From NCBI GenBank assembly GCA_049287005.1, contig JBAQEZ010000003.1, forward strand, positions 605,670 through 669,669: a DNA stretch of 64,000 bases, read 5' to 3'. The stretch comes from Candidatus Moraniibacteriota bacterium. Its GTDB lineage: Bacteria; Patescibacteriota; Minisyncoccia; Moranbacterales; UBA1568. The notes beneath the pieces are model-generated. The model saw only the letters and a program-made list of their open reading frames with translations. It was not told the DNA's origin and made no database searches. This document shows positions 13,910 to 19,118 of this stretch, one piece after another; the stretch's first letter is position 1; each line of letters starts with the position of its first letter. The position numbers and the translations under genes are program-made.

Positions 13910-14851
13910 TTATTTTATTTTTCCAGTTTTGAGAAACATTTCAAGCCTTTCTGGGAAATTAAATGTTTTAAGACTACTCTCTGCATCAATACCAAGTGTT
14001 TTCAAAACTAAAACCTGCGTTAAGTTATCAAAGAAACGCAAATATTGTTCCAGACCTTTCTCCCATTGGATTTTTGTCATCCATTCTTCCGCATAGCTCC
14101 TGTCAATTGGAGTTTTACCTGAATGTGCTAACTGATTTCTTAACACATGAAAAATATTTGATTTTTCAAAAAGCTGTTCATTGAAATCCTTTGGCCAATA
14201 TTTTTTAAGGATAAAAGAGAATATTTCTTTAAGATTACTTGATTCGTCAGAGGGAGTGGCACCACTTGGATTTTTTAAATGAGGATACAGCCATTCCCAA
14301 ATAACTACCATATTAAGAAATCGACTTTCCGTAATAAAGATATTGGAGTGATTTATAAGCATTCGAAGATGAAAGCCGTCATCAAATTGCTTCTGCCATA
14401 GTGGATTCGTGAGTTTTTCTGCTGCTATTCCTATTTGTTTTCCGCATTGATCAGCATTATCACTTATGCACTCCAGCATATTTCTGGAAACCAAAGGATA
14501 GTGTGACAAGCTTCTGCGAGAGAAAAGCTGCCAATTTTGAGCACTTAGTAATGAACCAATAACGAGAATGTCCTCTAAAAATTTTCTCTTAATACTTTTG
14601 AATTTATTCTCACCAACTCGTCCGCCTCGATACAAAATTGAATCTATCTGATGTCCACTATATTCAACATAAGCATTTTGCTTATGCTTACGATTAGATT
14701 TGATTATTTGTTTGCTTGTAGTTATACGGATTTCATTTTTAGGGAATTTTTTTATATTTTTTGGATAAAATGTATATCCAAAAGCCGAGAAAGGTTTGAC
14801 GAAATCCTCTTCCATAACAAAATTAACATTATCTAGTTTTATCCTTGCCAT
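13910..14851 (-). CDS. hypothetical protein with a C-terminal HEPN-like RN..AH motif (candidate Abi-type RNase)
   Basis: VLRNQLAHSGK fits the R-N-x3-H motif. The ORF is AT-rich. Confidence 0.4.
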   Translation of the reverse strand: MARIKLDNVNFVMEEDFVKPFSAFGYTFYPKNIKKFPKNEIRITTSKQIIKSNRKHKQNAYVEYSGHQIDSILYRGGRVGENKFKSIKRKFLEDILVIGSLLSAQNWQLFSRRSLSHYPLVSRNMLECISDNADQCGKQIGIAAEKLTNPLWQKQFDDGFHLRMLINHSNIFITESRFLNMVVIWEWLYPHLKNPSGATPSDESSNLKEIFSFILKKYWPKDFNEQLFEKSNIFHVLRNQLAHSGKTPIDRSYAEEWMTKIQWEKGLEQYLRFFDNLTQVLVLKTLGIDAESSLKTFNFPERLEMFLKTGKIK

Positions 14852-14956
14852 ATGTCATTTCCTAATTATAAGTTGAGATTAGTTTAGCACTTCCACAGAC
14901 TTTATTAAAATAAAATCATTATCTATCCGCTGTCACTATTTGAAACAATCTTTGAA

Positions 14957-15325
14957 CTAATACCGACTTCGTACCCCCGACCAATCCAATATCCTTCCTA
15001 CCATTAAGAAGCAAATGATATACAAGAAAGCTAGCCCTACCTTTATATAGTCATTCGCAAATACCTCTGGCTCCCAAATAAGCCCAATAATAAATAAAGT
15101 TCCGAGGAATAGGAAATTGTATAAAAAACTACCCAGCATACCCCAATGACCAGCAAGAGCCCTCGCCACAGCTATAGCAAAAATTACTAAAAGGGAAATG
15201 ATTACAGCCATCCAGTGTTCAGCAAGATATACCATGCCAATATCCCAAAGCGAACGATAGGCCATCGTCTGCCCCTCATTGAAAGCTTGAAGGACTTTAG
15301 TAGTGAATTCAGAACCTGTCTCCAT
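14957..15325 (-). CDS. small membrane protein
   Basis: Three to four hydrophobic helices. It is the last gene of a tightly spaced operon. Confidence 0.5.
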   Translation of the reverse strand: METGSEFTTKVLQAFNEGQTMAYRSLWDIGMVYLAEHWMAVIISLLVIFAIAVARALAGHWGMLGSFLYNFLFLGTLFIIGLIWEPEVFANDYIKVGLAFLYIICFLMVGRILDWSGVRSRY

Positions 15326-15329
15326 ATCC

Positions 15330-16427
15330 TTACTTCCGTAACTTACTTTCAGCTAACTTTCTCAATGCTTCCTCTCCCTCAACGCCCCTCAAGCGACCTT
15401 GTAAGAATCCTAGTTTGTAACTCAATCCATCACTCATCAAACGCCAGTTCGTAGCCTCAAGAGCCTTCTTAATAACCTTATGGGCATCATAAGTACTTTC
15501 TCTATCAACTCTTCCGGATTTACTATCTTGGAAGCTGAATCCTAAAATGACATCTTTCTGGATTTCTGGTTTCTCAAAAGAGAGCTGTACATACCCCGTC
15601 TTTTCAAGAATCGGAGTGAGAAGATTCTGGAGTTCTAAAATAGTAAGCATTTGAATGTTCTTTATAGCCTCAAATACATCCTTATTTTCTTCTTTATCCT
15701 TTATTGATTCTGAAAGATCCTTCATCGTTTGAGTATCTTCTATGTACTTTCTTCCTTCTTCGTCCGAAAGGCAATATTTTTTCTGGTCAGAAGCAAAGTC
15801 AGGATCGATTTTCGACTCCTCTTTTTTTTCATTAAAATCAATCGTGTCTTCTTCCTTGTATTCACATTGCGGACAAGAAGATCTAGTGGTGACGGAATGA
15901 TCAGCCTTGATGTGTTCCACCACAAGAGAGGAGTGACATTTTGGACACTTAGGATCATATTCCCACTCTTTGCCACTTTCCCAGTAAGCTCGCCTCTTCC
16001 CACAAGCTCTGCACTCAAACATGAACAATACTTCTTCCTTGCCACTTTTAGCTGTCATAAAATCTCGAGAAAGACACTCCATATCAAGGGAGCTACATCC
16101 CAAGCAACGAATACGCTGAGGCTCGATAGCCCCCTCTAATTTTTCCTCCTTCTTCCTGTCTTCTTCCAACCACTTATTAATGGTTTCGGATTTCTTTTTG
16201 TAACGCTCACCCTTGAGGAAATATAGAGCCAAATCTGTAAATGGTTTTCTTATACGACTCCATTCTTCAGGTGTAATTTTCCTTCCTTTATATTCTGGAA
16301 TATCTTTTTCAAGAAATCCCACCTCAGTACGTTTACACTCCGCAATAGTAAAAGAATCGTAAAGATCGGAGTAATATTCATACCTTTCGGGGTAACCTTC
16401 CCAGTCTTTAGTGATATCAAATTTCAT
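15330..16427 (-). CDS. hypothetical protein with tandem zinc ribbons
   Basis: Four C-x2-C pairs: CLGC, CRAC, CPKC and CPQC. Confidence 0.55.
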   Translation of the reverse strand: MKFDITKDWEGYPERYEYYSDLYDSFTIAECKRTEVGFLEKDIPEYKGRKITPEEWSRIRKPFTDLALYFLKGERYKKKSETINKWLEEDRKKEEKLEGAIEPQRIRCLGCSSLDMECLSRDFMTAKSGKEEVLFMFECRACGKRRAYWESGKEWEYDPKCPKCHSSLVVEHIKADHSVTTRSSCPQCEYKEEDTIDFNEKKEESKIDPDFASDQKKYCLSDEEGRKYIEDTQTMKDLSESIKDKEENKDVFEAIKNIQMLTILELQNLLTPILEKTGYVQLSFEKPEIQKDVILGFSFQDSKSGRVDRESTYDAHKVIKKALEATNWRLMSDGLSYKLGFLQGRLRGVEGEEALRKLAESKLRK

Positions 16428-16433
16428 AAACCG

Positions 16434-17861: not shown

Positions 17862-17866
17862 AGTAT

Positions 17867-18325
17867 CTATTCCAACTTATCACCCCTACGCATAAGAATC
17901 TTCCCCTCTAATGGCCATGCTTCATAATAGGTTGAATCTATCCACTTTTTCGTAGACTTATTCCAAAGACGCGGATAATCTTTCTTGTCGTTATTCCAGG
18001 TGTAATTTTTTCCTGAAAAAACATGGTGGTCAGCCCCCTGATAATCTTCTGGTCTAAGATTACTTTCAGGAATTTTCCCACCAGAATGAACCCGCACTAT
18101 TTCTCCAGCAGGAAGAATACCAGAAAAATCCGAGACTATCTCCCACTCTGCTTTAGGTGATTTATAAGCCCAGTGGTAAAGCTCTACATTGATCAAATCA
18201 ATGGGGACGCCAGATACATTTTTAAAATCAACCCATTCTCCTGCCAATTGCAGTTGTGGGATCATGTTCCCTACCTTATCTTTTCCTGCAGGATTGGGTT
18301 TAGCTTTAATGATTTGGAGTGCCAT
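17867..18325 (-). CDS. lamin-tail-domain (LTD) protein
   Basis: IIKAKPNPAGKD...EWVDFKNVSGVPIDL fits the LTD signature. Confidence 0.5.
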   Translation of the reverse strand: MALQIIKAKPNPAGKDKVGNMIPQLQLAGEWVDFKNVSGVPIDLINVELYHWAYKSPKAEWEIVSDFSGILPAGEIVRVHSGGKIPESNLRPEDYQGADHHVFSGKNYTWNNDKKDYPRLWNKSTKKWIDSTYYEAWPLEGKILMRRGDKLE

Positions 18326-18400
18326 GTCGGTGTTATTAAAAATTAATTTTGATACATTAAGAACTAGACGCTTCTCAAGTCTACTGTGGATAACCTCCGC

Positions 18401-18436
18401 TTGCTTTCGTTAACTTTAGGTAGTATACTTTAGGTA
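18401..18436 (+). promoter_or_regulatory. sigma70-like promoter (TTGCTT-17-TATACT) with the direct repeats CTTTAGGTA x2 overlapping the -10
   Basis: Lies upstream of the LexA/CI-like gene. The direct repeats at 18414–18422 and 18428–18436 would suit an autoregulatory operator. Confidence 0.45.
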
Positions 18437-18458
18437 TTAAGATTTTGTCAAATTTACC

Positions 18459-19118
18459 ATGGAAAGGCTAACAAAGAAGCAGACAGAGGTGCTCCAGTTT
18501 GTGCAAGATTTTCAAAAGAATCACTTGCACTCACCTTCGCTAAAGGAAATTGCCCATTTTTTTGAAGTAAGCATTCCGACCATTTACCAGCATGTTTCAG
18601 CCCTTGAAAAAAAAGGCTATCTTCTTCGTACAAAAAACAAAAGACGTGATTTTGAAATTGCAGAAACGCCGATCCCTAAGAATGCAATAAAATCCCCTGC
18701 TTTTGAGGCATTCACGGTTCCAATTCTTGGAGCTGCTACTGCTGGTTTTCCAAGAAACTTTGCCGAGGGACATGTAGAAGGATACATCAAAGTTTCTCGT
18801 AGGTTATTAAAACCAAAAAAAGAGCTGTTCGCAGTGAGGATAGATGGCGAATCTATGAACAAGGCCTCTAAGGCAGATGTCCTTCTTGCAAATGGAAACT
18901 TTGCAATTATTGATCCGACAAAAACGAATCCCGAAAACAATACCTATGTGTTATCAGTTATTGACGGTCTAGCAAATATTAAGAAGTTTCAAAGAGATAA
19001 AAATGGGATTCGTCTCATATCAGAATCTACAGAAGGTATTTATAATAAACCTATTCACATATCTAGTAGCGACGAGTATATGGTCAATGGTGAGGTGGTA
19101 GCGGTAATTGAGAAATAA
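18459..19118 (+). CDS. LexA/CI-like repressor (HTH plus S24 peptidase)
   Basis: An N-terminal LexA-type HTH, then a C-terminal VRIDGESM...K S24 Ser-Lys dyad. Confidence 0.8.
   Translation: MERLTKKQTEVLQFVQDFQKNHLHSPSLKEIAHFFEVSIPTIYQHVSALEKKGYLLRTKNKRRDFEIAETPIPKNAIKSPAFEAFTVPILGAATAGFPRNFAEGHVEGYIKVSRRLLKPKKELFAVRIDGESMNKASKADVLLANGNFAIIDPTKTNPENNTYVLSVIDGLANIKKFQRDKNGIRLISESTEGIYNKPIHISSSDEYMVNGEVVAVIEK

Follow-up and report, generated by a model that had tools for sequence, protein, structure and literature searches.

Whether the genes gathered around one repressor form a single defense system or a mosaic of separately inherited parts is the question raised by a locus in Candidatus Moraniibacteriota. 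It lies in a stretch of 64,000 nt (GenBank assembly GCA_049287005.1, contig JBAQEZ010000003.1, positions 605,670 to 669,669, forward strand), the whole of which is referred to here as the window. A LexA-like repressor gene is divergent from a leftward operon that encodes a lamin-tail-domain (LTD) protein, a 475-aa nuclease-like protein, a 365-aa zinc-ribbon protein (Zn365) and a small membrane protein, and beyond the operon, after 105 nt, follows the gene of a 313-aa HEPN-like protein. A first-pass annotation of the DNA had grouped these genes into one repressor-controlled candidate defense or stress module. Its open reading frame (ORF) coordinates, the gaps of 5, 6 and 4 nt within the operon, the four CxxC pairs, the PD…ExK signature and the RNxxxH motif were all found as claimed; the grouping of the four genes does not survive. 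Zn365 and the membrane gene belong to the backbone of a mobile element, and the LTD gene tracks the repressor. The reading preferred here, to which we give a probability of roughly 0.68, is that the locus is a three-layer mosaic consisting of an element backbone, a Shedu cargo and a LexA-LTD head.

Judged from its sequence, the cargo protein of 475 aa is Shedu SduA and adds an ordinary member to a family already known. Hidden Markov model (HMM) comparison bears out the earlier call of a nuclease, and of DUF4263/Shedu as the family to compare it with: residues 297 to 459 match the Pfam domain SduA_C/DUF4263 (PF14082) at 5.1e-16, with 59.7 bits against a gathering threshold (GA) of 27, and 13 PADLOC SduA models match the protein, the best at 6e-16. 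When 25 full-length SduA homologues are aligned, P333-D334, D345, E348-I-K350, Q378 and Y382 are invariant, and the PD…ExK signature with them. A database search places the full-length subfamily, about 460 to 480 aa long, mostly in Patescibacteria. Pfam gives no match for the region from residue 1 to about 290. Shedu has been described as a single-gene system of defense islands, transposons and prophages (10.1101/2023.08.10.552793), and its mechanism is treated in two preprints (bioRxiv 10.1101/2023.08.10.552793 and 10.1101/2023.08.10.552762).

Zn365, encoded directly downstream of SduA, is a backbone gene of an integrative element and not a Shedu partner. Its sequence is 100% identical to that of a protein from a metagenome-assembled genome of Candidatus Moraniibacteriota. 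Relatives occur in at least 278 species-level Patescibacteria genomes, several of which carry two or three copies. To survey their surroundings, 80 loci (L007-L086) were drawn from species-representative genomes; counted over 81 loci, with the window copy included, the neighboring families are a ParB-methylase (43), a TerS-like protein (42), a serine recombinase (33), TerL (22) and a LexA-like protein (18). The order is recurrent: recombinase, TerL, TerS and ParB-methylase genes point one way, a switch region follows, and cargo and then Zn365 point the other way, after which the genes are no longer conserved. In eight loci the ParB-methylase and Zn365 genes are directly divergent with no cargo between them. 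Elsewhere the cargo upstream of Zn365 can be a type I restriction-modification (R-M) system (HsdR/M/S with YgjP), a SMODS cyclase with Cap15, a KAP NTPase, a RelA/SpoT-like protein, NERD, DUF2779 or a type III-like methylase, and in all Zn365 sits behind at least 10 unrelated cargo types. From this diversity it follows that Zn365 marks the 3' edge of a defense-cargo hotspot. A window-like SduA adjoins Zn365 in only 1 to 3 of the 80 loci, and LTD in none of them.

In the protein itself the four CxxC pairs are C108/C111, C139/C142, C161/C164 and C185/C188, and among 25 homologues seven of the eight cysteines are invariant, with C142 conserved in at least 90%. In an AlphaFold2 (AF2) model with a pLDDT of 79, a helical hairpin and two zinc ribbons precede an alpha/beta domain at the C terminus; the model has no informative structural neighbor. 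The 80 related loci share no conserved portal, capsid or tail family, only four relatives of Zn365 are found in IMG/VR, and the element may be satellite-like. Homologues of the 122-aa membrane protein lie one or two genes after Zn365 in L041, L070 and L077; it is an accessory gene trailing Zn365 in a few elements rather than a defense partner. Bacteria of the candidate phyla radiation (CPR) rarely carry CRISPR, and the Zn365 hotspot is where these ultra-small cells would keep part of their immune repertoire.

Several observations on Zn365 relatives can be added. In L050 and L063 (about 10001-12100) Zn365 is about 696 to 698 aa long, so that it has an extra domain, and a SMODS-type cyclase gene precedes it in each locus. 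In L032, L034 and L059 a 203-aa HEPN-motif protein (IRNLFAHGH), with no Pfam or PADLOC match, is encoded as cargo just upstream. In L005 and L006 (9405-9692 and 5226-5513, respectively) a stand-alone ORF of about 76 to 95 aa directly follows an SduA homologue and is 43% identical to the last 95 residues of Zn365; it represents the backbone gene either in minimal form or as what is left after truncation. This likeness had prompted the idea of Zn365 as a Shedu partner ('SduB'), which co-occurrence in the 80 loci ruled out.

The head of the operon has a different distribution again. The LTD protein is small and cytoplasmic, without a signal peptide, and its family comprises 118 homologue clusters; the LTD call of the first-pass annotation holds at the level of this family, in which 34 of 35 members match PF00932 at E<0.01 (best 1.9e-11). 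An LTD profile has no match in the PDB, and no relatives were found in IMG/VR viral contigs, PLSDB plasmids or GenBank phages. In the first four contexts obtained, a LexA-like gene stood immediately ahead or divergent and the downstream genes differed. A further 80 metagenome loci were fetched out of 169 relatives, and the 60 with at least 900 nt of upstream sequence are informative. A regulator lies within 2.5 kb upstream of LTD in 53 of these 60, and after de-duplication at 80% identity the link holds in 37 of 44 clusters. The regulator is a LexA-like S24 repressor in 25 loci (15 divergent, 10 co-directional, median gap 4 nt) and, in 28, a CapP-like M78 metalloprotease, usually accompanied by a CapH-like helix-turn-helix (HTH) protein (PADLOC capP 1e-6 and capH 6e-10; Pfam Peptidase_M78). 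LexA-type loci are low in GC (median 0.37) and CapP-type loci high (0.59).

Downstream, LTD is the first cistron, with a median of 9 nt to the next gene on the same strand and many ATGA overlaps. What follows is, by PADLOC, a wide range of defense systems. Some are CBASS cyclases, whose partner is patatin, a Cap4-like SAVED-endonuclease or E2; others are Ppl, an AriA/OLD-like ATPase, a PD-T4-6-type kinase and a type II restriction endonuclease; and there are two kinds of helicase, one PbeA-like and one GajB-like, the latter with a Cas4-like nuclease. Of 10 further proteins sampled downstream of LTD, nine matched PADLOC models. In LexA-LTD loci, LTD and LexA proteins vary together in pairwise identity (r=0.81, 427 pairs), LTD proteins and cargo do not (r=0.20), and LTD pairs at least 60% identical have homologous cargo in just 8 of 118 cases. 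LTD thus tracks LexA and not the cargo, so that the LexA-like repressor and LTD can be regarded as a co-inherited head with exchangeable cargo, which in the window is Shedu.

The same loci offer a number of side observations. A 157-aa gene upstream of SduA or other cargo in L019 and L029 was considered as an LTD analogue and fails the LTD HMM. In L102, L105 and L110 a 189-aa HEPN-motif protein (RDDYHH), with no Pfam or PADLOC match, is encoded as cargo just after LTD. In L092, L093, L115, L116, L109, L111 and L134 the LexA-like gene heads an R-M array (Eco57I-type N6 and C5 methylases, or a type IIG-like enzyme of about 1000 aa) and is divergent from LTD-Ppl or LTD-GajB-like cargo, so one repressor may control two defense systems. 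In six high-GC loci (L129-L133 and L162) the genes of the CapP-like protease and LTD are separated by those for a sigma-70 region-2-like protein of about 195 aa and an acidic protein of 143 aa, which hints at a sigma/anti-sigma layer in this variant of the module.

The window repressor matches the Pfam domains LexA_DNA_bind (PF01726, a winged helix; 8.4e-12, 45.1 bits, GA 23.7) and Peptidase_S24 (PF00717; 7e-18, 64.9 bits, GA 23.3), both above GA, as expected of the HTH-S24 repressor of LexA/CI type named in the first-pass annotation. Against the NCBIfam LexA equivalog TIGR00498 it scores 109.8 bits, below the cutoff of 110.95, and because that cutoff is missed it is best called a LexA-like, probably mobile-element, paralogue. 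A candidate cleavage site, Ala95-Gly96 (AATAG), and the candidate catalytic residues Ser132 (GESM) and Lys175/176 (NIKKF) can be read from the protein.

Two promoter-like sites face each other in the region between the repressor and LTD genes. The TTGCTT-17-TATACT promoter that had been proposed there, overlapped by repeats, is present on the plus strand at 18401-18429 and would serve the repressor gene, but agrees with the consensus at only 8 of 12 positions. A stronger site on the opposite strand, TTGACA-18-TATACT (minus strand, 18451 to 18422; 11 of 12 positions), is aimed into the LTD operon and is the best sigma-70-like site between 13.5 and 19.3 kb. The two -10 boxes overlap within the 8-bp palindrome AGTATACT (18422-18429). 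Direct repeats of ACTTTAGGTA(G/T)TA at 18413-18425 and 18427-18439 flank and overlap AGTATACT and cover both -10 boxes, and we infer that the ACTTTAGGTA repeats are a candidate operator. Other divergent LexA-LTD loci have tandem direct repeats of their own in the same place (TTATGATAA twice, at a spacing of 11). For example, in L104, L105, L109, L111, L119, L122, L123 and L134 the divergent intergenic region is 31 to 71 bp long and holds TTATGATAA-CT-TTATGATAA followed by TTTACAGT. Such tandems suggest that the operators of this LexA-like subfamily are direct repeats and not palindromes.

Taken together, the layers can be joined into a working model. The backbone would be that of a small Patescibacteria integrative element with two divergent arrays, one of ParB-methylase, TerS-like protein, TerL and large serine recombinase, the other of Zn365 with or without the small membrane protein. 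The gap between the switch and Zn365 would collect defense genes, which would be transcribed from the shared leftward promoter. The cargo here, by analogy with characterized Shedu, would be an SduA oligomer whose N-terminal region holds the PD-(D/E)xK site off until invading DNA (free ends) is met and then cut. The head would consist of a self-cleaving LexA-family repressor and the small LTD protein ahead of the cargo. A repressor dimer would occupy the tandem ACTTTAGGTA repeats, which overlap both -10 boxes, and so hold down its own array as well as the LTD-SduA-Zn365 operon. Single-stranded DNA and RecA* arising from DNA damage or phage replication would then trigger cleavage at Ala95-Gly96 by Ser132/Lys175, LTD, Shedu and backbone genes would be transcribed, and Shedu would cut invading DNA like its characterized relatives. 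For LTD, our best guess is that it modulates the switch by binding DNA or the repressor.

A number of points weigh against this model. The window LTD protein on its own scores 27.4 bits against PF00932, short of the 34.3 set as GA. Promoter-like sites are no more frequent than in shuffles (13 observed against 15.4), so the case for both promoters is one of position and quality only, and the repeats are direct, unlike the palindrome typical of LexA boxes. Neither the single SduA sequence nor a 25-sequence profile retrieves a solved Shedu structure from the PDB, so that only the Pfam domain carries the mechanistic analogy. Direct nucleases of the Shedu type have been argued to need constitutive expression (PMC11662680), a poor fit to tight repression. 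No capsid genes were found in the element, and we infer repression, cleavage and inducibility alike from sequence features. Finally, the LexA-like gene heads the array of ParB-methylase, terminase and recombinase genes and has other orientations elsewhere, so it may be mainly the lysogeny-type repressor of the element.

This last point can be developed into an alternative that merits the fullest weighing, and that we nevertheless consider unlikely. The LexA-like protein would be a master repressor of CI type, acting for a prophage or a satellite-like element, and the leftward operon would be the early or induced array of that element; Zn365 would be a replication or excision factor, and Shedu and LTD would be morons serving, for instance, superinfection exclusion or interference with a helper phage. 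The position of the repressor gene at the head of the ParB-methylase/TerS/TerL array, and its varied orientation in the switch region of related elements, are what this alternative expects, as is a match to the PHROG family phrog_4, 'transcriptional repressor', at 1e-18; Shedu genes in prophages have been counted at 121 (10.1101/2023.08.10.552793). However, about 62 of the 80 Zn365 elements are without a LexA-like gene, so that it is not a core function of the element. LexA-LTD pairs also exist outside such elements, between R-M and Ppl or GajB-like cargo (L092, L109, L111 and L134), and LTD keeps its position beside CapH/CapP in high-GC bacteria. The earlier remark that this is not a typical phage early region is only partly apt, because the surroundings form a mobile-element switch region that lies beside terminase and recombinase genes.

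The presence of a small gene only 5 nt ahead of a nuclease gene brings to mind KELShedu of E. coli, in which the 12.6-kDa KELA, encoded 3 bp upstream, binds dsDNA and forms a complex with the DUF4263 nuclease (PMC12577705). LTD could likewise be a dedicated DNA-binding or regulatory partner of SduA, in a two-component Shedu resembling KELA-KELB. In both cases a small gene lies 3 to 5 nt upstream of the DUF4263 nuclease gene; at L098, too, LTD is upstream of an SduA homologue, and LTDs of bacterial nucleases accompany DNA-binding OB domains (PMC6746945). We regard this as improbable all the same. KELA is a 111-aa WYL-like SH3 barrel, whereas the window LTD protein is a 152-aa Ig-like protein that is not specific to Shedu: LTD is found far more often ahead of CBASS, Ppl, OLD/AriA-like, helicase-nuclease, kinase and R-M cargo, its sequence is not tied to that of the cargo, and full-length SduA homologues commonly occur without it.

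As for the module first proposed, in which the LTD, nuclease, zinc-ribbon and membrane proteins, with the HEPN gene, would make up one repressor-controlled defense or abortive-infection system, co-occurrence has already largely refuted it, and we give it very little weight. Zn365 keeps company with many unrelated cargos or with none, as the counts above show, and the SduA homologues of L001-L004 have neither LTD nor Zn365 beside them. None of the 166 fetched Zn365 and LTD loci encodes a homologue of the 313-aa protein, whose gene is bracketed by its own promoter-like site and a terminator-like hairpin. These outweigh the short spacers of 4 to 6 nt, which imply co-transcription, the likeness of the Zn365 C terminus to the ORF after SduA in L005 and L006, and the renewed association of LTD with Zn365-like or SduA genes in L096 and L098. 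Least credible of all is a host SOS regulon, with the repressor as the organism's own LexA and LTD and SduA as DNA-repair rather than immunity genes: the equivalog score is less than 1.2 bits short of its cutoff and genes divergent from lexA are often SOS genes, but this repressor gene lies in a low-GC island beside terminase and recombinase genes, related genomes hold several copies of these elements, and the cargo behind LexA-LTD consists of bona fide defense systems.

With the mosaic preferred, its wider meaning can be considered. How dangerous immune effectors are kept silent until needed is an active question, and to our knowledge only a few regulator classes are known to do so: CapW/BrxR, CapH/CapP and CapK/CapS. 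The locus points to another, a LexA-type self-cleaving repressor with a conserved LTD protein, and the occurrence of LTD with CapH/CapP as well, across distant phyla, makes it a concrete and testable candidate for a missing component. Control of immune operons by CapH/CapP is DNA-damage-responsive (bioRxiv 10.1101/2022.04.27.489752), and the other bacterial LTDs on record belong to secreted nucleases, in which the part they play is not clear (PMC6746945). Literature searches found no link of the lamin tail domain with CBASS, CapH/CapP, LexA or Shedu, and the CapH/CapP, CapW and CapK/CapS papers searched mention neither LTD nor a LexA-type regulator; a LexA/CapHP-LTD module ahead of diverse defense operons therefore appears to be undescribed. 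A bolder and rather doubtful proposal is that LTD is a required, unrecognized third component of damage-responsive immune regulators, carried in a portable head that serves many cargos, and that the Zn365 element is a principal vehicle of CPR defense genes. If this is true, LTD, made first on repressor cleavage, would tune the switch or license the effectors, perhaps through binding to DNA, to the repressor or to RecA-type filaments. With its regulator, LexA-like in Patescibacteria and CapH/CapP in high-GC bacteria, it would plug in ahead of Shedu, CBASS, Ppl, OLD/PARIS-like, Gabija-like and R-M systems, and the Zn365 elements would form a widespread family, capsid-less and terminase-bearing.

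At the far end of the leftward genes, the 313-aa protein combines an N-terminal beta-rich domain with a C-terminal HEPN four-helix fold (AF2, pLDDT 91.8). Both the fold and the motif uphold the earlier HEPN-like call: in R238-N-Q-L-A-H243 (Rx4H) the R, Q and H are invariant among 27 homologues, and the invariant residues of the family are R238, Q240, H243, E175, W185 and E186. The family is small, with 68 representatives, and the protein has no match in Pfam, PADLOC, PHROG or NCBIfam. Three homologue contexts that were looked up lay on short contigs and yielded nothing on neighboring genes. It is probably a stand-alone RNase-type HEPN gene at or just beyond the edge of the element.

The features of the locus are collected in Table 1. 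GC content is 36-44% across about 8 to 34 kb of the window, compared with about 50% in the flanks. Homologues of p258 keep the same position in L051 and L070. The 451-aa protein encoded after TerL was considered as a portal, a role ruled out by its Pfam match to large serine recombinases.

Table 1 Features of the repressor locus and its mobile-element setting (window coordinates).
Feature	Coordinates	Strand	Remarks
Terminator-like hairpin, then T-run	13711-13730	-	3' of the 313-aa gene
313-aa HEPN-like protein	13910-14851	-	Probably its own transcription unit
Small membrane protein, 122 aa	14957-15325	-	About 3 hydrophobic segments (hydropathy)
Zn365, 365-aa zinc-ribbon protein	15330-16427	-	Element backbone gene
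SduA, 475 aa	16434-17861	-	Putative Shedu nuclease, second cistron behind LTD
LTD protein, 152 aa	17867-18325	-	Leftward operon, cistron 1
Control region, face-to-face promoters	18401-18451	both	Promoter-like sites and direct repeats
LexA-like repressor	18459-19118	+	Heads rightward array LexA-p258-ParB/MTase-TerS-TerL
258-aa protein (p258)	19126-19902	+	No family match; between repressor and ParB-methylase
ParB_N-N6_N4 DNA methylase	19892-21250	+	Pfam; PADLOC MTase_II
TerS-like HTH protein	21156-21635	+	Pfam
Large terminase TerL	21619-23058	+	Pfam
Large serine recombinase, 451 aa	23255-24610	+	Pfam; directly follows TerL
Rightward element backbone overall	19126-24610	+	Same direction as LexA

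Two further features of the window can be added. At the left edge of the low-GC region is the gene of a 297-aa protein with an ice-binding-like domain (7226-8119, minus strand; Pfam 2e-22). A minus-strand cluster at 26884-33920 adjoins tRNA-Gln (34293-34366) and encodes an AAA ATPase (363 aa), an RDD membrane protein (202 aa), two unknowns (207 and 548 aa), an 837-aa HSP70-like protein whose match covers the N-terminal ATPase only, and a 175-aa GrpE-like protein. Homologues of the HSP70-like/GrpE-like pair adjoin a serine recombinase in L058. The cluster may represent additional cargo or a conflict system based on chaperones.

Compared with known systems, the window combines familiar parts in an unfamiliar arrangement. 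Like the Shedu proteins of B. cereus and E. coli, its SduA has a C-terminal SduA_C/DUF4263 PD-(D/E)xK domain, in which D…ExK and QxxxY are invariant. It also has a long N-terminal stretch, which may act as a sensor or clamp, and it is borne by a mobile element, a setting reported for many Shedu genes. In contrast, its first 290 residues give no match to any known Shedu sensor domain, and its gene comes second in the operon, after LTD, apparently under a LexA-type repressor, whereas the usual Shedu gene stands alone and is expected to be constitutive. The 313-aa protein can be set beside HEPN-MNT toxins, the HEPN domains of Csm6/Csx1 and the C-terminal HEPN domain of AbiA. It differs in being missed by curated HEPN profiles (Pfam, PADLOC), in its novel N-terminal beta-rich domain, and in having no adjacent MNT/antitoxin or CARF partner.

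The element resembles the hotspots of P2/P4-type phages and satellites and of other integrative elements in that a fixed site between backbone genes, here between the ParB-methylase/switch and Zn365, holds a defense system that varies from copy to copy. It differs in its Patescibacteria hosts, in a backbone without recognizable capsid, portal or tail genes, and in having the cargo inserted between a promoter and the backbone gene Zn365. With respect to a tailed prophage, the window has a large serine recombinase and TerL, and TerL runs straight into the recombinase. The closest parallel for the head is the CapH/CapP class (with CapW/BrxR and CapK/CapS), in which a protease-active repressor also lies just upstream of interchangeable defense operons, often divergently; about half of the LTD loci themselves carry a CapH-like HTH protein and a CapP-like M78 protease. 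The window regulator, however, is a single-chain LexA-type HTH-S24 autopeptidase with no separate M78 metalloprotease, and a third conserved component, LTD, stands between regulator and cargo. The window would thus work like the CapH/CapP class while not being a member of it.

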